From Acidimicrobiia bacterium (GTDB lineage: Bacteria > Actinomycetota > Acidimicrobiia > UBA2766), in NCBI GenBank assembly GCA_019695375.1, contig JAIBAC010000001.1, positions 25,638 through 89,637 of the forward strand: a stretch of DNA of 64,000 nucleotides, in the 5' to 3' direction. Of this stretch, positions 1,743 to 59,625 are shown one piece after another (positions within the stretch are counted from its first letter, which is position 1; the number at the start of each line of letters is the position of its first letter). Under the pieces are notes generated by a model. That model had not been told where the DNA came from, did not search any database, and saw only the letters and a program-made list of their open reading frames with translations. A program made the translations under genes and the position numbers.

Positions 1743-1780
1743 CGGCGCGTACCTTCCGCCACCACCCCGGGATCTCCTGC

Positions 1781-1903
1781 CCCCGACGTGGGGACGTGAA
1801 ACGCCCTCACACACCACTTCGCGTCCCCACGTCGATGCCGACCCCCGACGTGGGGACGTGAAACGCCCTCACACACCACTTCGCGTCCCCACGTCGATGC
1901 CGG
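1781..1903. repeat. two perfect tandem copies of a ~62-bp unit, each containing a 13-bp inverted repeat (CGACGTGGGGACG / CGTCCCCACGTCG) around a 25-nt loop
   Basis: Direct reading: unit 1781-1841 repeated 1843-1903; intergenic between lipoprotein stop (1911) and acyltransferase start (1742). Confidence 0.9.
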
Positions 1904-8574: not shown

Positions 8575-8577
8575 CCT

Positions 8578-9612: not shown

Positions 9613-10958
9613 CGCATCAGCCGCATCACGTCGTCGAGGCCCTCGCGGCGGATGACCACACGCGCGACGCCGTCGCGGGCGAACACGACCGCGGGCCGGC
9701 CGACGAGGTTGTAGTTGTTGGCCATCGCGTACCCGTAGGCGCCGGTCGCAGGCGTGACGAGCACGTCGCCGGCCCTGACGTCGGCCGGTAGGCGGGCATC
9801 GCTGACGAGCACGTCGCCGGACTCGCAGTGCTTGCCGGCCACGTCGGCCACGAGGTCGCGCGGCGCCAGCGGTCTGGCGGCGACGAGCGTCTCGTAGCCG
9901 GCGCCGTACAGCGCCGGGCGCAGGTTGTCGCTCATGCCGCCGTCGACGGCGACGTAGGTCCTGACGCCGGGGAGGTGCTTGATCGTGCCCACCGTGTAGA
10001 GCGTCACCCCCGCGCGGCCCACGAGCGCGCGACCGGGCTCGACGTAGACGACCGGATCGTCGAGGCCGGCTTCTGCCGCAGCCGTGGCCACGACGGATGT
10101 GAGCGCCGCGATCCAATCGGGAACCGCTACGGGCACGTCACCCGCCGTGTACGCGATGCCGAGCCCACCGCCGACGTCGAGCTCGCGCACCGGCGCGCCC
10201 ACGATCGCGCTCGCCTCGGCTGCGAACTGGACCAGTGCGGCGGCGGCCTCGCGGAAGCCGTCGAGGCCGAAGATCTGGCTGCCGATGTGGCTGTGCACCC
10301 CGACGAGCTCGAGTCCACGGCGGCCTGCGACGTCCTTCACCGCTTCGAGCGCCTGCCCGTTGGCCCAGCCGAAGCCGAACTTGGACTCCTCGTGGCCGGT
10401 GCGGATGTACTCGTGCGTGTCGGCGTCGACGCCGGGCGTCAGGCGGACGAGGACGTCCTGTGGTGGGCCACCGCCGTCACGCACCACGGCATCGAGGTTG
10501 TCGACGTCGTCGAAGGAGTCGAGCACGATCCGGGCGACGCCGGCAGCCCGCGCCGCCGCGAGCTCGGCGGGGGTCTTGTTGTTGCCGTGCATGACGAGGC
10601 GCTCGGGCGGGAAGCCTGCAGCGAGCGCGACGCCGAGCTCGCCGTCGGTGGACACGTCGAGCCAGAGTCCGCGCTCGGCGACGATGCGCAGCAGCGCCGG
10701 GCAGCTGAACGCCTTCGACGCATACGCGACGCGGCCTTCCAGCGGTGTGGGCGCCGCCGCGAACGCGTCGGTGAGCTCCGTGCAACGCGTCTCGATCGCA
10801 GCTTCGTCGTAGACGAACAGGGGTGTGCCGTGTTCGTGTGCGAGGTCCACGAGATCGCACCCCGCGATGCGGAGATGTCCGGCCGCGTCGACGCCTGCAG
10901 AGGGCGGCAGGACGTCTGCGAGTCCGGCGAGCTGCGCTGGCAGCGAGGTCGTGGTCAT
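9609..10958 (-). CDS. lysA: diaminopimelate decarboxylase
   Basis: 449 aa, PLP-dependent fold III decarboxylase motifs (YASKAF, HSHIGSQ, EPGRALVG, CESGD). Confidence 0.9.
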   Translation of the reverse strand: MTTTSLPAQLAGLADVLPPSAGVDAAGHLRIAGCDLVDLAHEHGTPLFVYDEAAIETRCTELTDAFAAAPTPLEGRVAYASKAFSCPALLRIVAERGLWLDVSTDGELGVALAAGFPPERLVMHGNNKTPAELAAARAAGVARIVLDSFDDVDNLDAVVRDGGGPPQDVLVRLTPGVDADTHEYIRTGHEESKFGFGWANGQALEAVKDVAGRRGLELVGVHSHIGSQIFGLDGFREAAAALVQFAAEASAIVGAPVRELDVGGGLGIAYTAGDVPVAVPDWIAALTSVVATAAAEAGLDDPVVYVEPGRALVGRAGVTLYTVGTIKHLPGVRTYVAVDGGMSDNLRPALYGAGYETLVAARPLAPRDLVADVAGKHCESGDVLVSDARLPADVRAGDVLVTPATGAYGYAMANNYNLVGRPAVVFARDGVARVVIRREGLDDVMRLMR

Positions 10959-11037
10959 TCCCGAAACCGTATCGGCTCGCAGCAGTGCCGCGAGAACAAC
11001 TTGCCCCGGCGCCGGCGGCGGCTACCGTCAGGGCACG

Positions 11038-12390
11038 ATGGCGGATCCCAAGATCACGATGGTCGGCGCCGGGGGGATGTCCTTCGGTCCCACGATGGTC
11101 AACGACGTGGTCCACACGCCGGCACTGCACGGCGCGCGCCTCGTCCTGCACGACCTGAACGCCGAGCGGCTCCAGCGCGCCTACCAGTTCGCGGCGAAGC
11201 TCAACGCCGCCGCGGGGGCGCCCGTCGTGCTGGACCGCACGACCGACCCTGCCGCTGCCTACGACGGAGCGGACTTCGTCTTCTCGAGCGCCGAGTTCGA
11301 GCGCTTCGCCCGCTGGCGCCAGGACCTCGAGATACCCAACGCGCACGGCGCACGTCAGCTCACGGGCGAGAACGGGGGCCCGGGAGCGGTCTTCCACTCG
11401 TTGCGCTCCATCCACAACACCCTCGGCATCTGCGCCGACATCGAACGGTTCTGCCCCGACGCGTTCCTGGTCAACCTCACGAACCCGATGAGCCGGGTGA
11501 CGCTCGCGATCAACCGCGGCACCAGCGTCCGCAACGTTGGGATGTGCCACGAGATGCCGATGGGCATCAACCGGCTGTGCCGCCGGCTCCGCGTCAAGCG
11601 CTCCCATGTCAGCGCCAAGGCGTCGGGCATCAACCACTTCACGTTCTTCACCGAGTTCGTCGACACCACGAGCGGCGAGGACCTCATGCCGCGGCTGCTG
11701 GACTTCTACACGAGCAGGTTCTTCGAGTTCGGCCCGATGGCGCAGCGTGTCGCGCACGCGTTGGAGAGCACGCTCGCCGGCGCCGCCCTCGTCGAGATGA
11801 ACTACCTGCCGCTCGTGGCAAAGGTCGCACGCGAGCACGGGCTGATCGCCGTATCGGTGGACAGCCACATCGGTGAGTACCTCCCCTTCGCCCTCGACGC
11901 CGCCGAGTGGATGCCGGTCCCGCTCGACTTCCACGAACCCGCCATGCGCGTCGCTGAACGCGCCGCGTCGTGGGCAGCGCGGACTCGCGTTCCTCTCCCG
12001 CTGCAGGCCTACGGCCACTCCAGCGAGGAGGTCGCGCCGCTCATCGCAGCGATCTGGACGGGTGAGCCCACTCGGATCCTGGCGGTCAACGTTCCCAACC
12101 GCGGCTACCTGCCCGATGTCGCCGACGGCGCCATCGTCGAGGTCGGCGCAACCGTCGACGGCGACGGCGTGCACCCGGAACGGATGCCGGCTCTCGGCGA
12201 GCCGCTCGCGGGGTGGATCGGCGTCCAGACCCGCCTGCAGGACCTCGTGGTGGACGCCGCGCTCAAGGGCGACCCCGACCTCGCTCTCCAGGCCGTCCGC
12301 GACGACCCCTGCTCACCGCCGGACGAGGAGTCGTGCCGGCGGATCTTCGACGAGCTGCGCGAGTTGCAGGCCGACCTCCTGCCCTTCTGA
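11038..12390 (+). CDS. glycoside hydrolase family 4 (NAD/Mn-dependent alpha-glucosidase-like)
   Basis: N-terminal Rossmann KITMVGAGGMSFG, conserved Cys-His region (MCHEMPMG) typical of GH4; start ATG 11038 inside longer ORF. Confidence 0.75.
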   Translation: MADPKITMVGAGGMSFGPTMVNDVVHTPALHGARLVLHDLNAERLQRAYQFAAKLNAAAGAPVVLDRTTDPAAAYDGADFVFSSAEFERFARWRQDLEIPNAHGARQLTGENGGPGAVFHSLRSIHNTLGICADIERFCPDAFLVNLTNPMSRVTLAINRGTSVRNVGMCHEMPMGINRLCRRLRVKRSHVSAKASGINHFTFFTEFVDTTSGEDLMPRLLDFYTSRFFEFGPMAQRVAHALESTLAGAALVEMNYLPLVAKVAREHGLIAVSVDSHIGEYLPFALDAAEWMPVPLDFHEPAMRVAERAASWAARTRVPLPLQAYGHSSEEVAPLIAAIWTGEPTRILAVNVPNRGYLPDVADGAIVEVGATVDGDGVHPERMPALGEPLAGWIGVQTRLQDLVVDAALKGDPDLALQAVRDDPCSPPDEESCRRIFDELRELQADLLPF

Positions 12391-12421
12391 CGGGCCGTCT
12401 CCACGGCGCTTGCCCTGGAGC

Positions 12422-12805
12422 TCAGCTGCGGCGCGCGGTGCTCCCGCGCAGCACCCCGGCGACTTGCAGTGCGAGGTCGCGCGGTTCGAACGGTTTCGTC
12501 ACATAGGTGTCGGCGCCGGCGGCGAGGCCGGCCGCCACATCCGCGGCCTGGGCGCGGGCCGAGAGCATCAGGATCCCGACACGGGTCGTCGCCGGCTCAG
12601 CCCGCAGCGACCTGCACACGTCGATGCCGTCGACGCCGGGCAGCATCACGTCGAGCACGACGAGCTCGGCGCCGATGTCGTGGGCCACCGTCACAGCGCC
12701 GAGGCCGCGGTCGACGACGGTCACCTCGTGGCCCTCGAGCTCGAGCGTGAGGCGCACGAGCTTCTGCACCGAAGGGTCGTCCTCGACGACGAGAATGCGT
12801 GCCAC
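12422..12805 (-). CDS. stand-alone response regulator receiver domain protein (CheY-like)
   Basis: 127 aa; ILVVEDD, LVVLDVMLPGVDG, TKPF motifs. Confidence 0.8.
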   Translation of the reverse strand: MARILVVEDDPSVQKLVRLTLELEGHEVTVVDRGLGAVTVAHDIGAELVVLDVMLPGVDGIDVCRSLRAEPATTRVGILMLSARAQAADVAAGLAAGADTYVTKPFEPRDLALQVAGVLRGSTARRS

Positions 12806-12906
12806 ACGGCCAGCCTACGGGGCGATCGCGACGCTGCAGACGCCGGCCGCGTCGTCCACCTCCGAGGCGTGGCGGCGACGGGTGGCGGTTACACTCGCAG
12901 GTCGTT

Positions 12907-12981
12907 GCCCTCGTAGCTCAGGGGATAGAGCACCGGCCTCCGGAGCCGGGTGCGGAGGTTCGAATCCTCCCGGGGGCGCCA
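12907..12981 (+). tRNA. tRNA-Arg (anticodon CCG)
   Basis: Hand-folded cloverleaf: acceptor GCCCTCG/CGGGGGC, D-arm GCTC AGGGGATA GAGC, anticodon loop CUCCGGA, T-arm GGAGG TTCGAAT CCTCC, discriminator G plus CCA. Confidence 0.8.
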
Positions 12982-13034
12982 GCGAAGCAGTGCCACGATC
13001 CTCTTGGTGAGCGGCTCGCCTCGAAGTCGACTTT

Positions 13035-13298
13035 TCACCAACGCAGCTCAGCGGCTTCGGTCACGAGCGCGTCGCTCACCGGAACGATGGTCGTGCCGGC
13101 GATTGCCGCCTCGAGGCGAAGTCGACGAGCCTCCCCCCAACCGGCGACAAGCGCGCCATACCGCAGCTCGGCAACAGTCTGCGCCGCGAGGAGGACGATC
13201 CGGCCGGTCATGGCTCGAACCTGCGCCTCGAAGCGCTGCCTTCGTCGAATCGACAGCGAGGCGCTGAAGACCCCGGTGTCGACCAGGATGCGACTCAC
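13035..13298 (-). pseudogene. truncated PIN-domain toxin (VapC-like N-terminal ~87 aa), GTG start, no adjacent antitoxin ORF
   Basis: SRILVDTGVF...TVAELRYGA matches first half of VapC PIN domains; ORF ends ~55 bp from tRNA-Arg 3' end; C-terminal PIN acidic residues missing. Confidence 0.5.
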
Positions 13299-13381
13299 GC
13301 TTCAAGTGCAGCGAAGAAGGCGTCGACCACCTCATCGGGGAGGCTACCGCCGACGATCCACCAGTGGTCACGACGTGACGC

Positions 13382-14095
13382 TCAGGGGCGAACGGCCTCG
13401 AAGACCATCGTCTCGAAGCGGTTGATGCGCTCGTCGCCGATGAACTCGCCGTGGGTCTCGAGTCCGCTGAGGGCGTCGTGTTCGCTCTTGGCGACATCGC
13501 ACTCGGCGACGTCGACGAAGCCGGCGGCGTCGAGGGCGGCCTGCAGCGTGCGGCGTGCGTAGACGAAGGTGTGACCCCAGGCGCGCATCGCGTGGTTCAA
13601 GACGTGCACCTCGTCGGCCTCGGGCACGTCCTCGAAGTACATCCGCTTGTAGTAGTCGACGTAGTGGCGTGCGTCGTCGCCGGCGGCCCCCGGCACGAGG
13701 CCCACGAGCGTCTCCAGGCACGGCGTCGCCACGCGCAGCACCCCGCCGGGGCGCAGCACGCGGCGCACCTCCGCCAGCAGGCTCTTGCCTGCGGGGTAAG
13801 GGACGTGCTCGATGACGTGTTCGGTGAACACGTAGCGGAAGGTGGCGTCGTCGAAGGGGAGCGGTTCCGTGGCGTCGAGGAACACCATCCCGGGAAGGTC
13901 GTCGAGGTCGGTGTTCAGCCAGCCGTCGAGCGGGTTGCCGCCACCGCCGATCTGGAGTTTGGGCTCGGTCGCCTCCGCCAGGTAGGCAGCCACCTGAGCG
14001 GGACGGCGACGCCGGCGTGCCATCGTCCGCACCTCGGTACGCAGGACGTGGCCGACGTATCGGATGCGGTCGAGATTGCGGCTCGCTGTCGACAT
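13382..14095 (-). CDS. class I SAM-dependent methyltransferase
   Basis: Motif I-like LQIGGGGNPLDGWLNTD, motif post-I/II (VLRPGGVLRV); start at first ATG 14095 (GTG 14113 alternative). Confidence 0.65.
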   Translation of the reverse strand: MSTASRNLDRIRYVGHVLRTEVRTMARRRRRPAQVAAYLAEATEPKLQIGGGGNPLDGWLNTDLDDLPGMVFLDATEPLPFDDATFRYVFTEHVIEHVPYPAGKSLLAEVRRVLRPGGVLRVATPCLETLVGLVPGAAGDDARHYVDYYKRMYFEDVPEADEVHVLNHAMRAWGHTFVYARRTLQAALDAAGFVDVAECDVAKSEHDALSGLETHGEFIGDERINRFETMVFEAVRP

Positions 14096-14165
14096 AGGTG
14101 CCTCATTCCGCACGGCGATCCCGCGCTCCTGCGCTGACTTGCGGGCTGTGGCGGCGACGCGAGGC

Positions 14166-15257
14166 CTAGACCATCGCGCCCACGTCGGCGTCGGCGTGGG
14201 CCTCCATGAACTCCACGAGGTGCGGGAGGTACGACGCTACCGGTGGGCACGTCACGCCGCTGCCTTCGAGATCGCGGCCGGCGTTGGTCGTGTCGTAGTG
14301 GGTCGGGTGCACGAAGTACGCGACGGCGCTCGCGGGGATCCGCATGAAGCGCTCGAGGGGGCCGATGTTCGCGAGCGCCCACGTGGTGAGGCGCTGCGGC
14401 ATCGGTACCCGTACCGCACGCCTCGACGTGACGCGGCACATCTCCACTATGAGCTCCTCGATGGTCAGAGGCCGTGGATCGGCGAGCTGGTACGTGACCC
14501 CGAGCGAGGTGGTGGACGCAGCGAGTTGGTCGATGGCGTCGATGACGAAGTCCGACGGCACCATGTTGAAGCGCGTCTTGCGCGGGTCGCCGATGACGGG
14601 GACCACCGCGAACGACTGCGGCTGACGCAGCAGCCACTGCAGCACGAAGTACGGTCCGTCGAACTTCTGCGTCTCGCCGGTGTGGGAGTCGCCGACGACG
14701 ACCGACGGCCGGTAGACGGTCGTGGGCATGCCGCCGTCGCGGGCTTTCGCCACCTCGACCTCGGCGAGGAACTTCGTCTCCTCGTAGTAGTTGTTGAAGC
14801 CCTGCCCCACGTCGAGGTCGGTCTCCTTGAACGGACCGCAGTGGTGGCCGCTCACGTAGCAGGTGCTGACGTAGTGGTGGCGTTGCAAGCCGGGGCAGTC
14901 CGCGGCGAAGCGCAGGACGTTGCGGGTGCCTTCGACGTTGACGGCCATCCCCACCTCCCGCGCGACGCCCAGGTCGTAGACCGCTCCCAGGTGCCAGACC
15001 TCCGTCGTCTGCGCCATGATCTCCGCGCGTCCGGCGAGATCGAGGTCCGCGGCGGTGAGGTCGCCGGCCACGCACTCGATCCGGCCCGCGAGGGCGGGCT
15101 CGTGGGCGACGAGCTCCTCGACACGCGCCTTCGCGAGGGCGTCGAACTTCGGTTGCACGAGGCACACGGCGCGGGCGTCGGGCCTGCGTGCGAGGATCCG
15201 CGGAACCAGCCGGCTTCCCAGGAAACCCGGGAAGCCCGTGACGAAGATCGTGTCCAT
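14166..15257 (-). CDS. NAD(P)-dependent epimerase/dehydratase-family reductase (fatty acyl-CoA reductase / thioester-reductase-domain-like)
   Basis: N-terminal IFVTGFPGFLGS Rossmann, YxxxK-type SDR extended family; start set at MDTIF (15257) inside ORF to 15338. Confidence 0.65.
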   Translation of the reverse strand: MDTIFVTGFPGFLGSRLVPRILARRPDARAVCLVQPKFDALAKARVEELVAHEPALAGRIECVAGDLTAADLDLAGRAEIMAQTTEVWHLGAVYDLGVAREVGMAVNVEGTRNVLRFAADCPGLQRHHYVSTCYVSGHHCGPFKETDLDVGQGFNNYYEETKFLAEVEVAKARDGGMPTTVYRPSVVVGDSHTGETQKFDGPYFVLQWLLRQPQSFAVVPVIGDPRKTRFNMVPSDFVIDAIDQLAASTTSLGVTYQLADPRPLTIEELIVEMCRVTSRRAVRVPMPQRLTTWALANIGPLERFMRIPASAVAYFVHPTHYDTTNAGRDLEGSGVTCPPVASYLPHLVEFMEAHADADVGAMV

Positions 15258-15352
15258 GCGCCTGCCCTCCGACCGTCTCGCCGAACTCACCCTCCCCGCG
15301 AGGGTATCGCCCGCGTGAGCTACTTGACAAACGGTCATCAGATGTCCAATGT

Positions 15353-16528
15353 ATGGACATGACTGCGATACCCGTAAACCAGGCGGCGGCGGCCTGGCGC
15401 GACCGCAAGCGCTATCTCTGGCCCTTCGCTCTCCTGGTCCCGGCCCTGCCCTTCATCGCCGGTGGGCTCGTGGCGCTCACCGGCTCCGGCGTGTTCTGGT
15501 GGGTCGGCCCCCTCGTGGTGTTCGGTGTCATGCCGCTGCTCGACACGGTCCTCGGCCGCGACAGCACCAACCCGCCCGACACAGCGGTCGCCTCCCTCGA
15601 GTCCGACCACTACTACCGCTGGTGCACGTACCTGTTCGTCCCGCTCCAGTACGCGTCGCTCGTGTGGGCATGCTGGATGTGGTCGCGCGGGTCCCTCGCG
15701 CCCGTGGACTCGTTCGGTCTCGCGATCACCGTCGGCTGCGCCGCCGGCATCGCGATCAACACGGCGCACGAGCTGGGCCACAAGCGACCTGCGGTCGAGC
15801 GGTGGCTGTCGAAGGTCGCGCTCGCACAGACCGGCTACGGCCACTTCCAGCTCGAGCACAACCGCGGCCACCACGCGCGGGTCTCGACCCCTGAGGACCC
15901 GGCGAGCTCGCGCATGGGCGAGCACTTCTACGAGTTCTTCCCCCGCACCGTCATCGGCGGACTGCGCTCGGCGATCCGCCTCGAGCGCGAGCGCGAGGCG
16001 CGCACGGGTGAGCGGTTCTGGTCGCCGCGCAACGAGCTCCTCAACGCGTGGGTGATGACCGTCGTGCTGTTCGGCGCCCTCGTGGCGATCTTCGGGCTCG
16101 CGGTCCTGCCGTGGCTTGTCGTGCAGGCCGTGTTCGGCTTCTCCCTGCTCGAGGTCGTCAACTACGTCGAGCACTACGGCCTGCTGCGCGACCGCCGCGC
16201 GGACGGCAAGTACGAGCGCTGCCGTCCGGAGCACTCGTGGAACGCCAACCACACGGTCTCGAACCTGTTGCTGTTCCACCTGCAGCGCCACAGCGACCAC
16301 CACGCCAACCCCACGCGCCGCTTCCAGACGCTGCGCCACTTCGATGACGCACCTCAGCTTCCCAGCGGGTACGCAGGCATGATCCTGCTCGCATACGTTC
16401 CACCCCTGTGGCGACGCGTGATGGACCACCGCGTCCTCGCGTTCTACGACGGTGACCTCGACCGCGTGAACGTCCACCCCCGGGCGCGGCGTCGCCTCGA
16501 GCGTCGCTACGGCACGGCGGCCGCGTGA
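15353..16528 (+). CDS. alkB: alkane 1-monooxygenase (AlkB-type integral membrane di-iron hydroxylase)
   Basis: Three histidine boxes HELGHK, EHNRGHH, LQRHSDHH plus hydrophobic TM segments; 391 aa. Confidence 0.85.
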   Translation: MDMTAIPVNQAAAAWRDRKRYLWPFALLVPALPFIAGGLVALTGSGVFWWVGPLVVFGVMPLLDTVLGRDSTNPPDTAVASLESDHYYRWCTYLFVPLQYASLVWACWMWSRGSLAPVDSFGLAITVGCAAGIAINTAHELGHKRPAVERWLSKVALAQTGYGHFQLEHNRGHHARVSTPEDPASSRMGEHFYEFFPRTVIGGLRSAIRLEREREARTGERFWSPRNELLNAWVMTVVLFGALVAIFGLAVLPWLVVQAVFGFSLLEVVNYVEHYGLLRDRRADGKYERCRPEHSWNANHTVSNLLLFHLQRHSDHHANPTRRFQTLRHFDDAPQLPSGYAGMILLAYVPPLWRRVMDHRVLAFYDGDLDRVNVHPRARRRLERRYGTAAA

Positions 16529-17172
16529 GCAGCGCGTCGAAGCCGGAACCCGTGACCCCGGTTCCCTTCGGCGAGGCGGCGCGGGCGCTGATGCAGACCA
16601 CGATCCTGGCAGCCGTGCGCGACCTGATGGACGACCGTCCGTGGAGCTCCATCACCATGGCCGACGTCGCCCGGCGCGCGGGCGTGAGCCGCCAGACGCT
16701 CTACAACGAGTTCGGCGGCCGCAAAGACCTCGCGCGGGCGTACGCACTGGACGTGGCCGACTCGCTCCTCGACCGTGTCGAGGCGGAGGCGCTCAGCCAC
16801 GCCGGCGATCCCCGCGCTGCGCTACTGGGCGCGTTCTCGCTGTTCCTGACGATCGCGGCGGACGAACCGATCGTGCGTGCTCTGACCGCCCCGAGCGGCG
16901 CTGACGACTTCGCGGCGCTGGTCGGCACGCCCGAGGGAGTGCCGATCCTGAACGGGGCGACGGAACGGATCCGCAAGGTGATGCGGACGCTGGCCCCTCT
17001 CGCCGCCGCCGAGGACGTCGCCGCCCTCGCCGACGTCGTCGTGCGCCTCGCGATGAGCCACCTGAGCGTGCCGGGCGGCTCGGTCGCGGAGGCCACGGAG
17101 GCGCTCACACGCGTGGTCGGGCCGGCGCTCGACACGCTCGCCGCGGGACCGGCCCGCACTCAGGTGGGCTAG
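16525..17172 (+). CDS. TetR-family transcriptional regulator (AlkU-like), ATGA-coupled to alkB
   Basis: N-terminal HTH (ITMADVARRAGVSRQTLYNEFGGRKDL); 215 aa. Confidence 0.8.
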   Translation: MSSASKPEPVTPVPFGEAARALMQTTILAAVRDLMDDRPWSSITMADVARRAGVSRQTLYNEFGGRKDLARAYALDVADSLLDRVEAEALSHAGDPRAALLGAFSLFLTIAADEPIVRALTAPSGADDFAALVGTPEGVPILNGATERIRKVMRTLAPLAAAEDVAALADVVVRLAMSHLSVPGGSVAEATEALTRVVGPALDTLAAGPARTQVG

Positions 17173-17181
17173 CGTCGCCGT

Positions 17182-17547
17182 ATGGGTGTCGCACGGCGCG
17201 TCGCGAGGTTCAACAAGCACGTCACCAACCGCGTGCAGATGCTGTGGGCCCCACGTTTCGCGCCGTGGGCAGTCGTCATCCACGTCGGCAGGCGCAGCGG
17301 TCGTGAGTACCGCACACCGGTGGTCGCCGCGGTCTCGGGATCGACCATCACCATCGCGCTCCCCTACGGCGTCGAGTCGGACTGGGTGCAGAACCTGCTC
17401 GCGGCGAAGGGCGGGACCTTCGTTCGGCGTCGTCGCGAGTACCGGCTCATGGACCCCACGGTGGTGGCGGCCTCGGGAGCGGGCGCCGGGATCATCCGCC
17501 CGCTGATGGGCATCACGTCGCACGCCCTCGTCGCGCGCATCGGCTGA
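17182..17547 (+). CDS. nitroreductase-family deazaflavin (F420)-dependent oxidoreductase (DUF385)
   Basis: 121 aa; GRRSGREYRTPV motif characteristic of DUF385/Ddn-like proteins. Confidence 0.7.
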   Translation: MGVARRVARFNKHVTNRVQMLWAPRFAPWAVVIHVGRRSGREYRTPVVAAVSGSTITIALPYGVESDWVQNLLAAKGGTFVRRRREYRLMDPTVVAASGAGAGIIRPLMGITSHALVARIG

Positions 17548-25835: not shown

Positions 25836-27542
25836 GTGGCGCGCAGACAGGCGTCGGGACCCATCGGTGAACTGCTGCTCAAGCGCAAGCTCGTCCGCCG
25901 CGAGGAGCTCGACGCGGCACTCGCTCACCAGGCGCAGAGCCCTGGCAACCGGATCGGAGAGATCCTCGTGGAGCTCGGCTACCTGCAGCCGAGCCAGCTC
26001 ACCCGCACCCTGGCCGAGCTCTACGGCGTCCCGGCCTACGAGGTGGGGACTCGTTGCGAGCCGGACGCGGTGGCGCTGATCCCGAAGGACTTCGCCGAGG
26101 ACCAGCTCCTGCTGCCGGTGCGCCTCGACGGCGACGCCGGTGATGTGATCGTGGTCGCGACCCCGCGACCCGACGACACGGAGCTCCTCGCGTTCGTGAC
26201 GGAGCGGACGGGCAAGACCGTCTCACCGCTCGTGGCGTCGGAGGCCGTCGTGCGCAGGGCGATCGGCGAGGCGTACCAGACCCTGCACGCGGTCGAACAG
26301 CACGTGGCCGCCTACCGGACCACCGCGATCGCCGCCACCACGGACGACTCGACGTCGATCTCCGCGGTCACCGAGGACGCACCGGTGGTGCGCATCGCCA
26401 ACATCCTCGTGACCGAGGCGCTGCGCGAGCGGGCCTCGGACGTGCACATCGAGCCTCAGCCCGACCGCCTGCGCATCCGCTACCGCGTCGACGGCACCTT
26501 GCGCGACGTCCAGGACCTTCCGCTCGAGATGGGGCCGGCGCTGGCGTCACGCATCAAGGTCATGGCCGACCTCGACATCATCGAGCGGCATCGCAGCCAG
26601 GACGGCCAGATGACCCTCGAGGTCGAAGGCCGCCAGGTCGACATCCGCGTCGCGATCACCGAATCGATCTGGGGCGAGAAGGTCGTGCTTCGTGTGCTCG
26701 ACCGCGGCAAGTCCGTTCTCGGCGTCGGGCAGCTGGGCATGCCCGACGAGCTCGTGAGCCAGTACCTGCCGGTCGTGCACATCCCCTTCGGGATGGTCTG
26801 CGTCGCGGGACCGACCGGCGCCGGCAAGACGACCACCCTCTACGCGTCGCTGAACGAGCTCGACCGCTTCGAGCGCAACATCACGACCATCGAGGACCCC
26901 GTCGAGTACATCTTCCCCGACATCACCCAGATACAGATCCACAAGGCGTACGGGCGCGACTTCGCCCACGGCCTGCGTGCACTCCTGCGCCAGGACCCCG
27001 ACGTGATCCTCGTGGGCGAGGTGCGCGACACCGAGACCGCCGAGATCGCGACCCAGGCGGCCCTCACCGGCCACGCCGTGTTCTGCTCTGTGCACGCCAC
27101 CGACTCGGTCGCGGCGCTGTTCCGCTTCCTCGACATGGGCGTGCCCAACTACCTCATCGCGCCGGCGATGGAGGCGATCGTGGCCCAGCGCCTCGTGCGC
27201 CGCATCTGCCACGTCTGCGCCGTCGAGTACGTCCCGAGCGCCGACGAGCTCGCCTTGTACGAGAAGGTCACCGGCGTGCGGCGCGAGGAGTTCTGGCACG
27301 GCACCGGATGCACCCACTGCCACGGGACCGGCTACTACGAACGCATCGGTGTGTACGAGTTCCTGCGCCTCGACGACGAGATCAAGGAGCTGATCGTGCG
27401 AGGCGCGACCGCGGCGGAGCTGCGCGACGCAGCCGTGAAGACATCGGGGATGGTGCCTCTCGGTCAGGCTGCGATGGCCAAGGTGACCACCAACGAGACC
27501 ACCATCTCCGAGGTGATCAGGACCGTCTATGCAGCCGGTTGA
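25836..27542 (+). CDS. pilB: type IV pilus assembly / type II secretion ATPase (PilB/GspE family) with N-terminal GspE_N domain
   Basis: Walker A GPTGAGKTTT, Asp box, His box, tetracysteine motif CHVC...CTHCHGTG; GTG start 25836 preceded by GAGGAG. Confidence 0.85.
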   Translation: MARRQASGPIGELLLKRKLVRREELDAALAHQAQSPGNRIGEILVELGYLQPSQLTRTLAELYGVPAYEVGTRCEPDAVALIPKDFAEDQLLLPVRLDGDAGDVIVVATPRPDDTELLAFVTERTGKTVSPLVASEAVVRRAIGEAYQTLHAVEQHVAAYRTTAIAATTDDSTSISAVTEDAPVVRIANILVTEALRERASDVHIEPQPDRLRIRYRVDGTLRDVQDLPLEMGPALASRIKVMADLDIIERHRSQDGQMTLEVEGRQVDIRVAITESIWGEKVVLRVLDRGKSVLGVGQLGMPDELVSQYLPVVHIPFGMVCVAGPTGAGKTTTLYASLNELDRFERNITTIEDPVEYIFPDITQIQIHKAYGRDFAHGLRALLRQDPDVILVGEVRDTETAEIATQAALTGHAVFCSVHATDSVAALFRFLDMGVPNYLIAPAMEAIVAQRLVRRICHVCAVEYVPSADELALYEKVTGVRREEFWHGTGCTHCHGTGYYERIGVYEFLRLDDEIKELIVRGATAAELRDAAVKTSGMVPLGQAAMAKVTTNETTISEVIRTVYAAG

Positions 27543-28947
27543 CCCCAACGGTCCCCATGCGGCCGCCGCGGCCACGCACGCCCACCCGCCCGTGCCGGCC
27601 GGCTACGCCTCACCCCAGCCTCCCTACCCCGCGGGTGCGGGCCACGCCGCTCCGGCGCCGCCACCGGCGCCGGTCACGCCCGAGCCCGAGGACGAGCGCC
27701 GGCGGGTGGAGGCCAAGCGCCGCCGCGACCGCCCCAAGATCGGCACGTACGCGTACAAGATCCGCACCGCCCACGACGTGATCGTGCGCGGCAAGCTCCG
27801 CGCGGCGAGCGCCGAGCAGGCCGCCATGATCGTGAACCAGCCCGGCGGCGAGATCCTCAAGCTGCGCCGCCAGTCCGACGTGCTCCACATGGAGATCGGT
27901 CCGCGGCGAATCAAGGGCGCCGAGCTCGTCATCTTCACACGCCAGCTCGCCGCGTTCGTGCGCTCGGGGATCCCGATGATCGAGGCGCTCGGCTCGATCG
28001 GCGGCGAGAACGCGAGCCGCCAGCTCCAGGACACTCTGCGCGAGGTGTCGCTCGACCTCGCCGAGGGGATGCCGCTCAGCCGCGCGATCTCCCAGCATCC
28101 CACGGTCTTCCCCAACTGGTACGCCGACCTCGTGCGCGCCGGCGAGACGACCGGCAAGCTCGACACCGTGCTCGAATCCGCTGCCCGCTACCTGCAACGC
28201 CAGGAGGAGGCGAAGAAGAAGGTCCGGTCGGCGCTGATCTACCCGGCGGTGATCGCGGTGATGGCGGTGGTCACCGTGGCCGTCCTCCTCGTGTACGTGC
28301 TGCCCAAGTTCGTGACGTTCTTCGAGGAGTTCGACGCGCAGCTCCCGGCCATAACCAGGGCACTGCTCACCACCTCCAAGTTCATCAGCGACAACCTCCT
28401 GTGGATCGCCCTCGGGTTCGCGATCGTGGTGCTCGTCGCGATCGTCCTCGTGCGGACCCCGCCGGGGCGGTACGCGTGGGACTGGCTCAAGATCAAGGTG
28501 CCGCTGCTCGGCATCGTGATCCGCTACTCCATCGTCGAGCGCTTCTGCGCGACGCTTGCCACGATGGTCTCCGCCGGCGTGCCGCTCGTCACCACGTTCA
28601 CGGTCGTCATCGACGGCGCCCGCAACAAGGTGTTCGAGCGCTCTCTCACCAGGGTGCGCGAGTCGATGATGATCGGCCAGGGCATGAGCGGCCCGATCGC
28701 GGCGACCGGCCTGTTCCCCCCGATCGTGCCCCAGATGGTCAAGGTCGGCGAGGACACGGGCACGCTCGACGAGCAGCTCCGCATGGCCCAGGAGTTCTTC
28801 GGTGAGGAGCTCGACTACCGCCTCCAGAAGTTCACCGCAATCTTCGAGCCGATGATGATCATCTTCATGGGTGTGATCGTCGGATTCGTGGCGCTCGCGA
28901 TCGTCTCCGCGATGTACGGGATCTTCCAGCAGGTCAAGCTGAAATGA
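27529..28947 (+). CDS. pilC: type IV pilus platform protein (PilC/GspF family) with Pro-rich N-terminal extension
   Basis: Two GspF repeats, 3 TM helices; overlaps pilB by 14 nt. Confidence 0.85.
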   Translation: MQPVDPNGPHAAAAATHAHPPVPAGYASPQPPYPAGAGHAAPAPPPAPVTPEPEDERRRVEAKRRRDRPKIGTYAYKIRTAHDVIVRGKLRAASAEQAAMIVNQPGGEILKLRRQSDVLHMEIGPRRIKGAELVIFTRQLAAFVRSGIPMIEALGSIGGENASRQLQDTLREVSLDLAEGMPLSRAISQHPTVFPNWYADLVRAGETTGKLDTVLESAARYLQRQEEAKKKVRSALIYPAVIAVMAVVTVAVLLVYVLPKFVTFFEEFDAQLPAITRALLTTSKFISDNLLWIALGFAIVVLVAIVLVRTPPGRYAWDWLKIKVPLLGIVIRYSIVERFCATLATMVSAGVPLVTTFTVVIDGARNKVFERSLTRVRESMMIGQGMSGPIAATGLFPPIVPQMVKVGEDTGTLDEQLRMAQEFFGEELDYRLQKFTAIFEPMMIIFMGVIVGFVALAIVSAMYGIFQQVKLK

Positions 28948-29450: not shown

Positions 29451-30169
29451 GCGGTGATCACCGCGGCGGGGACCACGGGTTCACCCTGATCGAGGTGATG
29501 CTCACCGTCGTGCTCCTGTCGGTCGTGATGGGCGCGCTCGCGACCGCGGCGATCGTGTTCCTGCGCAACATCAACGAGACGCAGGCACGCCTCTACGTCG
29601 CGAACTCGCGCTCGCTCACGTCGCGCTACCTCGTGGGCGACATCCAATCCGCCGCCGTCTACGACCCCGCCTTCACGCCGACGCCGTGGACGGGGGGCAG
29701 TGACGGGACGGTCGTGTGGCCCGGTGCGCCCGCCACGCCGGCCGCGCCGAGCACCGACCCGGTGACGGCCACGAACGGGGTCGTGGAGTGCGACGCGACG
29801 CCGCGGACGGTCCTGACCGCCTACCACTACGACATCTTCCCCGGCGACGACCCAGACGTGGCGTCGAAGGACCGCGCCGTCAAGGTCGAATACACGGTGG
29901 TCGCGCCGCCGCCCGGTGACGACTGCCAGCTGGTGCGCACGAAGTGGGCGGTCACGGACACTGGTGGAACGTACGACTGGGCGGCACTGGAGCAGAACGC
30001 CGTCGCGCACGAGCTCCGCGTCGACGGCACCACACCGATGGTCACCACCACGGACCAGGGCGGTGGTCGCTGGCAGGTACACGTGAACCTGCAGCCGAAG
30101 TCATCGGAGGGCGTCGAGTACGCCTACGACTTGTGGGCCAAGCGCCGAGTGGACACCATCGTGCCATGA
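29441..30169 (+). CDS. prepilin-type minor pilin
   Basis: GDHG/FTLIEVMLTVVLLSVVMGALA prepilin motif; GTG start 29441 (alt GTG 29447) after AGGAGG. Confidence 0.75.
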   Translation: MPVSGDHRGGDHGFTLIEVMLTVVLLSVVMGALATAAIVFLRNINETQARLYVANSRSLTSRYLVGDIQSAAVYDPAFTPTPWTGGSDGTVVWPGAPATPAAPSTDPVTATNGVVECDATPRTVLTAYHYDIFPGDDPDVASKDRAVKVEYTVVAPPPGDDCQLVRTKWAVTDTGGTYDWAALEQNAVAHELRVDGTTPMVTTTDQGGGRWQVHVNLQPKSSEGVEYAYDLWAKRRVDTIVP

Positions 30170-32040
30170 AGGTGGGTGCCCGAGAGGTGGGACACGTGCG
30201 TCGACCGCGACAGCCACGGCGAGACGGCGCCGAGCAGGGCTCGGCCCTGATCATCGCGCTCGTCTTCCTGGTCGTGTTCGCGATGCTCGCCGGTGCGGTC
30301 GCTCAGCTCGCGACCGGTTCGCTGCGGACAGGCGAGACCGTGGGGGACCACAGCGACACGCTCTTCGGCGCCGACGACGCATCCGAACGCACGCAGGTCG
30401 CGATCGAGCAGAACCTCGACCCCGTCTGCCAGGCGGACGCCACGATCAAGCCCTACGTCCACGACGGCGACACCTACCTCGTGCGCTGCTCGTACCTCAA
30501 AGAGGGCGAGAACCCCCTGCCCGGCATCCACTTCGCGATGATGCTGTTCAGCAAGGACGAGTGGGCACTGACCAAGACCGGCTCGCCGGCCGCGTCGCTC
30601 ACCGGCGACATCCGCCTCAACACCGCGTTCCCGTGCTTCCGCTTCGCCCCCGACGGCTTCGTGAATCCGTTCGGGGTCATCGCGTGCACGAACCCGCCCG
30701 ACGAGCGTTCCGGGCGCATCCTCGGCGTCGACCAGTACTCACCGGTGGGCCCGATCCGCTTCCGCGCCAACTCCGAGGGCGCCCAGGGAGTCATAGACGT
30801 GCGCAGCAGCGACTGCAGCGGCAGCGGCTGGCTCCCGAGCCCCGTCGACATGGCATCGGCGCACGGCGGCCCGCACCTGCAGAACGCCAACAACGACGGC
30901 AGCGGCCCCTACACGTCGTTCACGAACGCCAACTGGACGTGCCACACCGACGACCTCGTGGACTCCGATCCCGACTACCCGCTGCCCGACCAGGTCGCCG
31001 ACGGGACGCTACCCACCCAGAGCTCTGCGGGCACATACGAGGACTGCAGTTCGACACCTCAGTGGTTCAACGTCGGATACCCGGTCCTGATGCAGTACAG
31101 CTGCGTGCGCCACTTCACGCCGGGGCGCTACACGTCCAACCCGACGCTCGACCTGACGGCCTCGTACGGTTACAACGGCAAGTCCACCGGGGTGCGGGCG
31201 AACATCTTCGATCCCGGGGTGTACTGGTTCGACACCGACGACACGGTGCCGCCGCAGCCGTGGTTCCCCGAGCCGGGTCTGAGCTTCTCTGTCAAGGACC
31301 AGTACCGCGACGCCCCCGTTGTGATGGGAACGGCCGACTCCCGCATACGGGCCAACACCACCTGGACCAACACCAACATCGTGGCCCAGATCCCGATCGG
31401 TGAGCGCTGCCTCGCAGGCGAGCCCGGTGTCGAGATGGTCTTCAACCCCGGCTACGGCATGGTGATCAACCCCGTGACAGGAGGCGCCGGCTTCCCCTCG
31501 GCACAGGTCACCGCGTGCCAGCTGCGGCCCGGACAGGTCGCCGGCGGCCAGCCCGGCATCGTGCTGTACCAGAAGAAGTACCCGGCCGCGGACTGGGACG
31601 GCGGCTTTACGAACTGGCCTGCGGGCAATCCGTCGCCGTGGCCCCAGCACCCCGCATGGGGGACGTTCGCCCTGTTCAACTCCGCCGACAACGTGAGCTC
31701 GGGCGGGCTCGTGATGGACGGCTTCGTGTACGCACCGCACGGCATCATCAAGACCGCCGTCGGGCTCGTGTCGACGTCGGGCACCCAGATCGCGTCGGGG
31801 ATCATCGCGTTCTCCCTGCAGCTCAAGGCGGTCGGCGCCGGCGGCCAGATGGTCGCCAACGAGCAGCCCCGCTTCGCCGGCAAGTACCTCGTCGAGATCT
31901 GGAACTGCGGGACGGCCGTCGACGCCGCTGCGTGCGGCATCGACGCCAAGCCCGCCGACGCGCGTGCCCTCGTCGACGCCGCCGTCCCCGGCGGCTCGGG
32001 CCCCACCCCGATCCGCTTCGACCGCTGGCTGCCCAACTGA
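30166..32040 (+). CDS. large PilX_N-domain minor pilin-like protein (624 aa) with Cys-rich C-terminal region
   Basis: N-term GSALIIALVFLVVFAMLAGAVAQLATGSLRTG resembles PilX N-terminal domain; ~16 Cys in extracytoplasmic part; ATGA overlap with previous pilin. Confidence 0.65.
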   Translation: MKVGAREVGHVRRPRQPRRDGAEQGSALIIALVFLVVFAMLAGAVAQLATGSLRTGETVGDHSDTLFGADDASERTQVAIEQNLDPVCQADATIKPYVHDGDTYLVRCSYLKEGENPLPGIHFAMMLFSKDEWALTKTGSPAASLTGDIRLNTAFPCFRFAPDGFVNPFGVIACTNPPDERSGRILGVDQYSPVGPIRFRANSEGAQGVIDVRSSDCSGSGWLPSPVDMASAHGGPHLQNANNDGSGPYTSFTNANWTCHTDDLVDSDPDYPLPDQVADGTLPTQSSAGTYEDCSSTPQWFNVGYPVLMQYSCVRHFTPGRYTSNPTLDLTASYGYNGKSTGVRANIFDPGVYWFDTDDTVPPQPWFPEPGLSFSVKDQYRDAPVVMGTADSRIRANTTWTNTNIVAQIPIGERCLAGEPGVEMVFNPGYGMVINPVTGGAGFPSAQVTACQLRPGQVAGGQPGIVLYQKKYPAADWDGGFTNWPAGNPSPWPQHPAWGTFALFNSADNVSSGGLVMDGFVYAPHGIIKTAVGLVSTSGTQIASGIIAFSLQLKAVGAGGQMVANEQPRFAGKYLVEIWNCGTAVDAAACGIDAKPADARALVDAAVPGGSGPTPIRFDRWLPN

Positions 32041-32046
32041 CGCCCG

Positions 32047-32174
32047 GCCCCACGCCAAACGCGGGCGGAATCGCCCGCGAGCACGTCAGACCACCCGCGT
32101 TTGGGGGACGGACCCACGCCAAACGCGGGCGGAATCGCCCGCGAGCACGCCAGACCACCCGCGTTTGGGGAGGT
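32047..32174. repeat. two tandem ~64-bp copies (1-2 mismatches) each containing 11-bp inverted repeat CCAAACGCGGG/CCCGCGTTTGG and nested GCGGGCG-GAAT-CGCCCGC hairpin
   Basis: Direct reading; located between pilX-like stop and major pilin start. Confidence 0.9.
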
Positions 32175-32301
32175 GGCCGCCCCGCGCGTTGGCGGGCGGG
32201 ATGGCAGGATCTGGGGCTCTCATGTAGAAATGCGTGACTGTTGGGTAGTGGGCTGAGTTACCTGGATCAGGAAGTCGACCCTTACTGGGGGAGAACCGGC
32301 G

Positions 32302-32673
32302 ATGAAGAGACAGTTCGAGCGGCTGCACGCCGCGCGGGTGGGCGAGGGTGAAGGCGGGTTCACCCTGATCGAGCTCCTGATAGTTATCGTGATCCTCGGC
32401 ATCCTCGCCGCCGTCGTCGTCTTCTCGGTGAGCGGCATCACCGACACCGGCGACCAGGCAGCCTGCACGTCGAGCCGCTCCGCGATCGAGACCGGCCTCG
32501 AGGCCGCCTACGCGAAGTCGAACCCGAAGGCTTACCCGGTGGACCTCGCGGCACTGCAGGCTTCGGGAATGGTTGGCGAGCTCAACGGTGTGACTGCGAC
32601 GTGGACGGTCAACGCCGGGCCTCCGCAGACGATCAGCGGACTGACCGTCAGCACCCCGACCACCACCTGCTGA
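32302..32673 (+). CDS. pilA: type IV major pilin (prepilin with G/FTLIELL cleavage-methylation site)
   Basis: 123 aa; leader MKRQFERLHAARVGEGEGG then FTLIELLIVIVILGILAAVV; GGAGA RBS. Confidence 0.85.
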   Translation: MKRQFERLHAARVGEGEGGFTLIELLIVIVILGILAAVVVFSVSGITDTGDQAACTSSRSAIETGLEAAYAKSNPKAYPVDLAALQASGMVGELNGVTATWTVNAGPPQTISGLTVSTPTTTC

Positions 32674-32699
32674 ACCAGCAGGCAGACGACACTCCATCC

Positions 32700-32724
32700 G
32701 TACCCCGGCCCGCGGCCGGGGTAC
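32700..32724. terminator. GC-rich hairpin (11-bp stem GTACCCCGGCC/GGCCGGGGTAC, 3-nt loop) between convergent pilA and pilT
   Basis: Perfect inverted repeat read from sequence 27 bp after pilA stop. Confidence 0.5.
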
Positions 32725-32730
32725 GGCGCG

Positions 32731-33744
32731 TCAGGGGAGGCCGAGCACCTGACGTTCGGACTCCTCGAGGGTGACCATCCCCTCCGCACGGCTCGAGCGG
32801 ATCACGTTGTGGATCTGGTTGGTCTTGGCCTCGCGGATCAGGTTTCGCACCGGGTCGGTGGCGATCAGGACCTCGAACGCCGCCACACGACCCCCGGTGG
32901 GGCTGGGATGGAGGCGCTGGTGGACGACAGCGAGCAGCGCGGCACTGAGCTGGGCGCGCACCTGGTTCTGATGATCGCCACCGAACGCGTCGATGATGCG
33001 GTCCACCGCCTGTGCCGTGTCGTTGGTGTGAAGGGTTGCGAACACCAGGTGGCCGGTCTCGGCGATGGTCAACGCCGACGAGATCGACTCGAGGTCGCGC
33101 ATCTCACCGACGAGGACGACATCGGGATCCTCACGCAGCACGGACCGCAACGCCATGTGGAAGTCGGGGGTGTCGGTGCCTACCTCACGCTGGTCGACGA
33201 CGGCGTGCTTGTGGGTGAACACGTACTCGATGGGGTCCTCGAGCGTGATCACGTGGCACGCCCGCGTCTGGTTGATGCGCTCGATCAGCGACGCGATCGT
33301 CGTCGACTTGCCCGACCCGGTGGGACCCGTCACGATCACGAGGCCCGTGCTCTTCTCGGTCAACGCCACCACAGCGGGAGGGACACCGAGCTGCTCCGGT
33401 GCCGGTATCACCGCGGGCAGGTGCCGCAGGGCCACCGCCCAGTGCCCCTTCTGACGGAAGACGTTCCCGCGGAAGCGTGCACGACCGGTCCAGTCGAACG
33501 CGAAGTCCGCCGTGTTGTGCTCGGCGAGCTGAGCGCGGTGCTCCTCCCCGACGAGCGCCTCGACACACGCGTCGACCTCGACGTCGGTGAGCGGTTCCGC
33601 TCTCATCGTGCGGAGCGCTCCGTCGACGCGGCCACGCGGTGGTGTGCCCACGGACAGGAGCAGGTCGGAGCCGCCGATCGCGACGAGCTGGTCGAGGAGC
33701 CACTCGAGCAGAGTGACCGCCGCCTGCGTCTCGTAGGCCTCCAT
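32731..33744 (-). CDS. pilT: twitching-motility / pilus retraction ATPase PilT
   Basis: Walker A GPTGSGKSTT, Asp box, His box (GHLVFATLHTN), AIRNLIRE-like motif (PVRNLIREAK); start at MEAYE 33744. Confidence 0.85.
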   Translation of the reverse strand: MEAYETQAAVTLLEWLLDQLVAIGGSDLLLSVGTPPRGRVDGALRTMRAEPLTDVEVDACVEALVGEEHRAQLAEHNTADFAFDWTGRARFRGNVFRQKGHWAVALRHLPAVIPAPEQLGVPPAVVALTEKSTGLVIVTGPTGSGKSTTIASLIERINQTRACHVITLEDPIEYVFTHKHAVVDQREVGTDTPDFHMALRSVLREDPDVVLVGEMRDLESISSALTIAETGHLVFATLHTNDTAQAVDRIIDAFGGDHQNQVRAQLSAALLAVVHQRLHPSPTGGRVAAFEVLIATDPVRNLIREAKTNQIHNVIRSSRAEGMVTLEESERQVLGLP

Positions 33745-58954: not shown

Positions 58955-59625
58955 AAACTACAAAGGCGCCCGGCCTGCTCCCCACAAGGCGCTCGGCACT
59001 TCCTCCCACGGACCTCGTGAACCACGTACCTCGACCCGTGGACGTCAAGAGAGGAAGCACCTCGGCCTGCTTTCCACAGAGGCGCTCGGCACTTCCTCCC
59101 ACGGACCTCGTGAACCACGTACCTCGACCCGTGGACGTCAAGAGAGGAAGCACCTCGGCATGCTTTCCACTGAGGCGCTCGGCACTTCCTCCTACGGACC
59201 TCGTGAACCACGTACCTCGACCCGTGGACGTCAAGAGAGGAAGCACCTCGGCCTGCTTTCCCCTGAGGCGCTCGGCGCTTCCTCCTACGGACCTCGTGAA
59301 CCACGTACCTCGACCCGTGGACGTCAAGAGAGGAAGCACCTCGGCCTGCCACTCCACAAGGCGCTCGGCGCTTCCCTCCTACGGACCTCGTGAACCACGT
59401 ACCTCGACCCGTGGACGTCAAGAGAGGAAGCACCTCGGCCTGCCACTCCACAAGGCGCTCGGCGCTTCCCTCCACAAAGGCGCTCGGCGCTTCCTCCTAC
59501 GGACCTTGTGAACCACGTACCTCGACCCGTGGACGTTGAGAGAGGAAGCACCTCGGCCTGCTACCCGTGCCGCTCCAGACAGGAAGCACCTCGGCCTGCC
59601 ACTCCACAAGGCGCTCGGCGAGGTC
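58955..59625. repeat. array of ~7 tandem 93-bp structured repeats (MIRU/VNTR-like), last units degenerate
   Basis: GGCGCTCGGC anchor recurs at 58988, 59081, 59174, 59267, 59360, 59454, 59478 (period 93/94); each unit has nested inverted repeats (CACTTCCTCC..GAGGAAGCAC, CCACG..CGTGG). Confidence 0.9.

Follow-up and report, generated by a model that had tools for sequence, protein, structure and literature searches.

A two-copy hairpin repeat beside a pilin gene of an Acidimicrobiia bacterium as a probable local array of a dispersed intergenic minisatellite family

Described intergenic repeats and the array at the pil locus

The described systems that most invite comparison with the repeat considered here are the REP and REPIN elements, the MIRU units and the MITEs. 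REP elements occur mostly between convergent or unidirectional genes, no more than about 20 bp from a 3' end and at a variable distance from the next start, and they pair head-to-head or tail-to-tail, head-to-tail dimers being rare (PMC3733652); tandem clusters of whole REP units plus their flanks are known in Pseudomonas (PMC3116915). MIRUs are head-to-tail units of 40-100 bp, present at approximately 40-50 intergenic loci and carrying G+C-rich imperfect terminal or internal inverted repeats, that are located between the genes of polycistronic units and whose ends can overlap the adjacent open reading frames (PMC3184786). MITEs, finally, are characterized by terminal inverted repeats, a non-coding core, a stable stem-loop and intergenic dispersal (PMC3184786).

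The window (that is, the whole 64-kb stretch of DNA that was analysed) includes a type IV pilus cluster in which the order is a T2SSE/MshEN ATPase gene, a T2SSF gene (27529-28947), two N_methyl minor-pilin genes, a PilX_N-like gene, the repeat array, a pilin gene and a PilT-like ATPase gene, the last of which is convergent with the pilin gene and ends the cluster as listed. The PilX_N-like gene (30142-32040, plus strand), recognized from the gene calls, a weak Pfam PilX_N match and its NCBI name, encodes a minor-pilin or pilus-assembly protein of 632 amino acids and is the final gene of the upstream type IV pilus operon; the candidate major pilin gene (32302-32673, plus strand), recognized from the gene calls and Pfam, encodes 123 amino acids with an N_methyl motif. 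For the genomic context of the repeat family, genes were called by a GC3-based open reading frame heuristic, which recovers the main genes of the pil region and misses a few short or atypical reading frames.

A sequence-only reading of this locus had described a tandem duplication of a 64-bp hairpin unit, and that description was confirmed at 32045-32172, both by Tandem Repeats Finder (32045-32170, period 64, 2.0 copies, 96% matches, score 238) and by a repeat search that returned two 62-nt copies (32045-32106 and 32109-32170) with 97% identity. The 25-mer CCAAACGCGGGCGGAATCGCCCGCG occurs exactly twice within the window, and two matches were obtained in 0 of 100 shuffles. With the addition of a register comparison, unit 1 (C-rich linker, 50-nt core and G-rich tail) was placed at 32045-32108 and unit 2, head-to-tail with it, at 32109-32172, each being 64 bp in length and on the plus strand. 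The further statement that the units differ by one transition did not hold: they differ at 2 of 62 core positions (C/A at 32048/32112 and T/C at 32086/32150), and the final two positions of the 64-nt register also differ between them. The sequence of the region 32041-32210 can be written as TGA-cgcc-( CGGCCCCACG CCAAACGCGGG CGGAATCGCCCGCGAGCACGTCAGACCA CCCGCGTTTGG GGGA )( CGGACCCACG CCAAACGCGGG ...CGCC... CCCGCGTTTGG GGAG )GTGG..., with each pair of parentheses enclosing one unit.

Exact pattern matching placed the core of unit 1 at 32055-32104 (plus strand), where the arms CCAAACGCGGG (32055-32065) and CCCGCGTTTGG (32094-32104) surround a 28-nt asymmetric interior, and the core of unit 2, with identical arms at 32119-32129 and 32158-32168, at 32119-32168 (plus strand). 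The outer inverted repeat of each unit is thus 11 bp long (CCAAACGCGGG/CCCGCGTTTGG), and an inner palindrome of 8 bp, CGCGGGCG-GAAT-CGCCCGCG, was located by the repeat search and by folding at 32060-32079 in unit 1 and at 32124-32143 in unit 2, both on the plus strand. The position that had been assigned to the array, between the pilX-like stop and the pilin gene at about 130 bp from its start, proved accurate: the stop codon ends at 32040 and the pilin ATG is at 32302, with the array beginning approximately 5-14 nt 3' of the former and ending 130 nt 5' of the latter. Immediately after unit 2, at 32176-32201, is a short hairpin, CCGCCC-CGCGCGTTGGC-GGGCGG, which resembles a degenerate 3' arm (CCGCGCGTTGG versus CCCGCGTTTGG) and which, judging from that resemblance, may be the leftover of a third unit.

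The remainder of the spacer (32173-32301, plus strand) was found to be conserved in a three-species alignment. Conserved blocks include TGTAGAAATGCGTGAC (32223-32238), CGACCC and an RBS-like GGGGGAGAA (32287-32295), and the 130 nt adjoining the pilin ATG retain TGTAGAAAT.CG.GAC, CGACCC and GGGGAGAACCG in all three alignable species. This stretch, 3' of the array, is probably the pilin's own promoter and 5' untranslated region; a sigma-70 consensus scan of 31800-32800 found no promoter.

Dispersal, anatomy and placement of the family

Additional copies were sought by scanning one genome per species, across 185,579 species, for the pattern CCAAACGCGGG-N15-40-CCCGCGTTTGG, and this arm-pattern scan returned 47 loci. 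Of the 47, 38 come from a single MAG, 'Acidimicrobiia bacterium STL-ACT9', whose contigs reach 1.5 Mb; there the arm span is always exactly 50 nt and the elements occur either singly or every 63-64 bp. STL-ACT9 is a relative of the organism examined here, its locus L014 being syntenic with window 7667-17466 at approximately 80% nucleotide identity. Five further loci correspond to a different, perfect-palindrome repeat in the Actinomycetes MAG ELA509 that has the core CCCCTCCAAACGCGGG in common with the family, and the remaining matches look like chance hairpins. The same arm pattern found four unrelated single hairpins among metagenome contigs, in a scan that missed the JGI contig carrying the locus (L007), and had 0 matches among viral contigs, so that no sign of a phage origin was seen. 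The ELA509 element (L022 4203-4264, L034, L042, L053 and L054) is in its own right a near-perfect palindromic, REP-like sequence of about 62 nt, CGCAAAsCCCCTCCAAACGCGGGTTTTyG..., and the presence of its 16-nt core CCCCTCCAAACGCGGG in the Acidimicrobiia family, across classes, hints at either a common origin or a shared recognition motif.

A family HMM, run with nhmmer over the fetched STL-ACT9 loci plus the window, identified 130 distinct copies in 44 arrays. Overall the arrays range from 1 to 7 copies, with 2-7 copies in 41 of the 44; adjacent units are head-to-tail in 85 of 86 pairs, and the modal period is 62-64 bp. Since arrays of the family mostly comprise 2-7 units at that period, the 2 x 64 bp found in the window is a typical array. 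It is the single array of this family in the 64-kb window, and dispersal was demonstrated in the relative, STL-ACT9.

The unit of approximately 63-64 bp consists of a 50-nt core, made up of 11-bp terminal inverted repeats and a partly conserved, asymmetric interior of 28 nt, followed by a C-rich/G-rich linker of about 13 nt, and its oriented consensus is cccCaCC-CCAAACGCGGG-C(A/C)RGAYG(A/G)CCCGCC-A(A/G)CGNGNCA(A/G)ACC(A/G)-CCCGCGTTTGG-gGa. Between arrays the arms are 97% identical (a figure inflated by the fetching of loci through at least one exact-arm copy) and the interiors 65%; within arrays, interior identity is 93.5%. That contrast fits units that were dispersed at an earlier time and have since been locally, and recently, duplicated or homogenised. 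Rare single changes in the arms (GTTTGC, GTTCGG and GATTGG) merely break a pair, and no compensatory double changes accompany them, which indicates that the arm sequence, and not only its pairing, is maintained.

The claim that each unit contains an outer and an inner stem that are mutually exclusive was upheld, because GCGGG, in the 5' arm, is common to both. When single units were folded as plus-strand RNA, the outer stem formed the minimum-energy structure (-29.4 and -32.5 kcal/mol; the z-scores, -1.7 and -2.3, are modest), and the inner hairpin was favoured on the complementary strand and with DNA parameters. The interior CCCGC from which the competing inner stem arises is a feature of the family, giving at least five contiguous pairs in 86 of 130 copies; an inner stem of 7 bp occurs in just nine of the 130, and the loop-adjacent inner G-C pair is confined, among the same copies, to the two in the window. 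Mean stability across the family is -19 kcal/mol for the outer stem versus -9 kcal/mol for the inner. No compensatory changes were found in the 11 arm pairs across 130 copies, and covariation gives no signal either way on structure because the arms are essentially invariant. At the gathering threshold, an Rfam search of the whole window matched tRNA alone, and a permissive search of 31950-32350 returned chance miRNA or sRNA matches, none better than E=1.6. A consensus scan of 31800-32800 for intrinsic terminators found none, the stem being followed by GGGG or GGAG, with no T-run.

The arrays are placed in a consistent manner relative to the surrounding genes, and none lies inside a called gene. 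For 38 arrays the context is convergent in 16 cases, co-directional in 17 and divergent in 5, against 39, 126 and 44, respectively, for background gene pairs at the same loci (Fisher p=0.003 for the convergent enrichment). Flanking stops are close, at a median of 16 nt (31 of 49 lie within 30 nt), and flanking starts farther off, at a median of 92 nt; where the genes are co-directional, the stop precedes the array by a median of 10 nt and the next start follows it by a median of 82 nt. The geometry of the pil locus, with the array approximately 10-14 nt after the stop and 130 nt from the ATG, is therefore typical of the family. Orientation relative to the adjacent gene is without bias (19 same, 23 opposite), and in at least five arrays the stop codon (TGA) of the upstream reading frame lies 19-24 nt inside the element.

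Direct traces of transposition were sought as well. No consistent direct repeats, of the kind a target-site duplication would leave, were found beside single copies or arrays, the sequence on either side consisting of the C-rich and G-rich extensions that belong to the family itself, and the sole syntenic comparison (L014 versus window 12980-14168) is not a clean empty site. In that comparison, approximately 1.2 kb of the window (12981-14165, versus L014 3869-4011) next to a tRNA gene (12907-12978) is absent from the STL-ACT9 locus; this extra DNA contains a methyltransferase-like reading frame (13385-14113, minus strand) and one of 149 amino acids, and L014 has instead two CCAAACGCGGG element copies between the tRNA gene and the stop of the convergent gene. 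A regular expression for the HUH motif, admittedly a crude test, matched two of 423 coding-like reading frames in about 300 kb around the arrays, neither of them transposase-like by eye. No resemblance to a transposase was seen, either, in the translations of the reading frames in uncalled gaps near the L024 and L048 arrays or of the gene that separates the two arrays of L033.

When set against the described systems, the family shares with REPs and REPINs the form of a short, G+C-rich, extragenic hairpin repeat at tens to hundreds of loci, with conserved stems, a variable loop or interior and several families per genome. It shows the high-copy extragenic dispersal of those elements (130 copies in 44 arrays in the STL-ACT9 loci and the window) and their placement near 3' ends in convergent and co-directional spacers, only 5 of 38 arrays being divergent, and its tandem arrays of whole units recall the REPIN clusters of Pseudomonas (PMC3116915). 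It differs in having a 50-nt core with 11-bp arms and a 28-nt interior, whereas a REP is a palindrome of 20-40 nt with a short loop; in carrying CCCCACC as its 5' flank, rather than a GTAG or CGTC tag; and in the same-orientation arrangement of 85 of 86 adjacent pairs, where REPs and REPINs would form inverted doublets. Its phylum, moreover, does not figure in the list given for tagged REPs; PMC3733652 nowhere uses the word "Actinobacteria".

The likeness to MIRUs lies in an actinobacterial host, in units of 62-64 bp, in the number of arrays (at least 44) and in the stop codon that falls within the element in at least five of them. MIRU units are reportedly co-oriented with their genes (a point credited to Supply et al.), whereas orientation in this family is random (19 same, 23 opposite) and 16 arrays occupy convergent spacers. 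Two other differences are the uniform copy number at the pil locus (seven contigs from at least six samples) and a host class, Acidimicrobiia, that is not Mycobacterium, in a comparison with MIRU that concerns organisation. With MITEs the family has in common nearly invariant 11-bp terminal inverted repeats that flank a non-coding core; in contrast, its unit is far smaller than most MITEs, shows no apparent target-site duplication and exists predominantly in tandem arrays, and no parent IS with matching ends was noticed. By analogy, then, the family is best regarded as REP-like in distribution and probable effect and MIRU-like in organisation. No REP or MIRU survey was found to describe it, and it appears to be an undescribed member of the broad group of REP- and MIRU-like intergenic hairpin repeats, outside any named family.

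Several other identities were considered for the repeat and dropped: a CRISPR-like mini-array, in that the would-be spacers are identical; an integron attC site, there being no cassettes between units; a coding repeat, periods of 62, 63 and 64 all being present; and a sigma-54 promoter, for which the spacing is inconsistent. Actinobacteria are, moreover, not known to possess sigma-54.

Orthologous spacers, copy number and other repeat families

PilX-like homologues with 69-73% identity led to contigs of three further species, and thereby to orthologous pilX-pilA spacers. In L066 the TGA is followed immediately by a single diverged family copy, which matches at 21 of 22 arm positions and 20 of 28 interior positions; in it, CCCAC replaces CCCGC, with A.C beside the loop, and the inner pairing is lost. 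The presence of a copy at the same site implies that the element is older than the species split, and that the duplication occurred in the lineage of the window. In a second species (L062 6477-6590, and also L063-L065) an unrelated hairpin repeat, GTTCTGGGCGCGCC ... GGCGCGCCCAGAAC, is situated directly after the pilX TGA. In the third (L058 7879-7918, and also L059-L061) all four contigs stop approximately 40 nt past the pilX stop, within a CACGTGGGGA repeat that belongs to the second family described below, and these contig ends show the pattern expected of an assembly that breaks at a repeat.

Copy number could also be read from seven metagenome contigs that encode an identical pilin and derive from at least six samples: each has exactly two copies, with the same diagnostic SNPs. 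At position 32142, where the window has C, all seven have T, a change that weakens the inner hairpin of unit 2; the 303 nt compared, comprising the 261-nt spacer and some 40 nt of flanking sequence, are otherwise identical. Two Logan contigs, L008 and L009, break inside the array.

Other hairpin repeats were encountered, both in the window and in STL-ACT9. A perfect tandem of 62 bp x 2 with an inverted repeat of 13-17 bp (arms CGACGTGGGGACG/CGTCCCCACGTCG) occupies window 1780-1902. The preceding gene, a hypothetical one on the minus strand, has its stop (1911) 8 nt away, and the ATG (1742) of an Acyl_transf_3 gene follows at about 37 nt; a Logan contig of 1.7 kb, L071, begins at the edge of this tandem. 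The CGACGTGGGGACG repeat constitutes the second dispersed family, and is found in tandem at the STL-ACT9 loci L011, L028, L032 and L051, which had been fetched for other reasons. A further array, at window 58971-59561 (with partial units to approximately 59620), is built from a 93-bp unit that has the inverted repeat CTTCCTCC...GGAGGAAG in its interior and is repeated about six times, one unit being 118-119 bp long. It takes up the whole interval separating two minus-strand genes, an enoyl-CoA hydratase gene whose stop is at 59624 and a DsbD_TM gene that starts at 58948. A third tandem family, with a 61-bp period x 2 and arms CACGTGCGCGCG / CGCGCGCACGT, was seen at L026 6768-6882 and L044 415-536 of STL-ACT9, and its architecture is the same as that of the other two families. 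Hairpin minisatellites of one architecture thus adjoin functionally unrelated genes across the lineage.

Readings of the pil-locus array

Taken together, these observations are best explained, with a probability of roughly 0.8, if the array is the local two-copy member of a dispersed family of non-coding hairpin minisatellites in a small clade of Acidimicrobiia. Of the possibilities raised by the sequence-only reading, that of a REP- or MITE-like mobile repeat gained support from the 130 copies in 44 intergenic arrays that lie near stops, rather than starts, in STL-ACT9; mobility itself is something that we infer, because neither a transposase or RAYT, nor a target-site duplication, nor a clean empty site was found. 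The search for further copies had been set in advance as the test of a pilin-specific role, and in the closest available genome the unit is scattered at unrelated loci. A pilin-specific switch is very unlikely because, in that relative, copies closely follow the stop codons of dozens of unrelated genes, and the pilin context would be incidental; the repeat has the look of a selfish or a housekeeping element.

The family is spread over intergenic sites directly behind stop codons, and dispersal is presumably effected by a trans-acting enzyme that reads the arms. The near-identical head-to-tail neighbours are the pattern that local tandem amplification would leave, and arrays may have grown by slippage or unequal recombination. 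The pil array would then belong to the 3' untranslated stretch that trails the minor-pilin operon, 5' of the pilin's conserved regulatory region. Once transcribed, a unit would form an 11-bp G+C-rich stem that might act, as has been proposed for REP, as a 3'-end barrier or a partial, orientation-independent terminator; such a stem would incidentally insulate the pilin promoter from read-through, and the array would not be a dedicated pilin regulator.

Two proposals of the sequence-only reading assign the array a specific role in pilin expression, and neither fared well. Under one of them, an attenuator or RNA-processing site, the exclusive stems would switch read-through into pilA, or fix a site of cleavage, and so set the ratio of pilin to minor pilin. 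The coexistence of two stems that share GCGGG, the unusually strong 8-bp inner hairpin of the window copies, the location of the array between two pil transcription units, and the occurrence of some hairpin repeat directly after the pilX stop in every orthologous spacer examined are all compatible with that idea. The same unit, however, stands in either orientation behind the stop codons of dozens of unrelated genes, and, against what would be expected of a cis-regulatory RNA, the orthologous spacers hold a single copy or unrelated families of hairpin repeat. The strong inner hairpin is peculiar to the window copies, and inner pairing is missing from the L066 ortholog; conservation within the spacer falls on the 130 nt that follow the array, and there is neither a U-tract terminator nor an Rfam family. 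An attenuator or processing site must accordingly be considered highly improbable. Under the other proposal, gain or loss of a 64-bp unit would alter promoter spacing or read-through and thereby turn pilin expression up or down. Tandem head-to-tail units are prone to slippage, arrays of the family vary from 1 to 7 copies, and the breaks in Logan contigs L008 and L009 fall within the array; but phase variation in copy number is disfavoured because all seven spacer-spanning contigs, from at least six samples and with the same diagnostic SNPs, uniformly have exactly two copies. The array is, furthermore, upstream of the conserved promoter-proximal block and not within it, and an effect on spacing does not need a 64-bp step, so that a phase-variable switch is hardly credible.

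A different alternative accepts the genome-wide distribution and holds that a dedicated host protein, for instance one with a part in nucleoid structuring or in 3'-end formation, binds the arms as DNA or RNA, such that the repeats are functional rather than selfish and the pil copy is like the others. In its favour are (i) the 97% identity of arms versus 65% of interiors between arrays, with no compensatory changes, so that the sequence itself is conserved; (ii) the tight and orientation-independent placement next to stop codons; (iii) persistence at the orthologous L066 site with 21 of 22 arm positions conserved; and (iv) the failure of the crude HUH screen of 423 neighbouring reading frames to find a transposase. 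Against it, arm conservation is inflated by the exact-arm ascertainment, multiple copies were found in only one of the 185,579 species genomes, and the existence of several families that have different arms and the same architecture, and that replace one another at one site, fits selfish turnover better than it does a single host factor; a host-selected module is, on balance, unlikely. The invariant arms, the retention of a copy in L066, and the presence of a hairpin repeat after the pilX stop in all four lineages could nonetheless mean that structure is selected at this position.

A broader and speculative proposal, for which the odds are poor, is that these repeats make up an undescribed superfamily of head-to-tail hairpin minisatellites, with at least three families that share one architecture (58-64 bp) and differ in their invariant arms (CCAAACGCGGG, CGACGTGGGGACG and CACGTGCGCGCG). 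On this view dedicated proteins, other than RAYTs, would recognize them, their insertion would be directly behind stop codons, one family would take the place of another at orthologous sites, and to the host they would be orientation-independent 3'-end or insulator modules. Were that so, the pil copy would be an insulator between the minor-pilin operon and the pilin promoter.

Returning to the preferred reading of a dispersed minisatellite family, its interest lies in a combination of features (invariant arms, a variable interior, a head-to-tail norm, placement adjacent to stops, and sister families that turn over at the same site) within uncultured, wastewater-associated Acidimicrobiia. The repeats break short-read assemblies, as at L058-L061 and in the Logan contig at 1780-1902, and so are relevant to MAG quality. 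Strain typing could also make use of them, as could studies of how REP-like elements spread without a RAYT. For the pil locus itself the value of the finding is corrective, in that proximity to a pilin gene is no reason to annotate a conspicuous hairpin duplication as a regulator of pilin.
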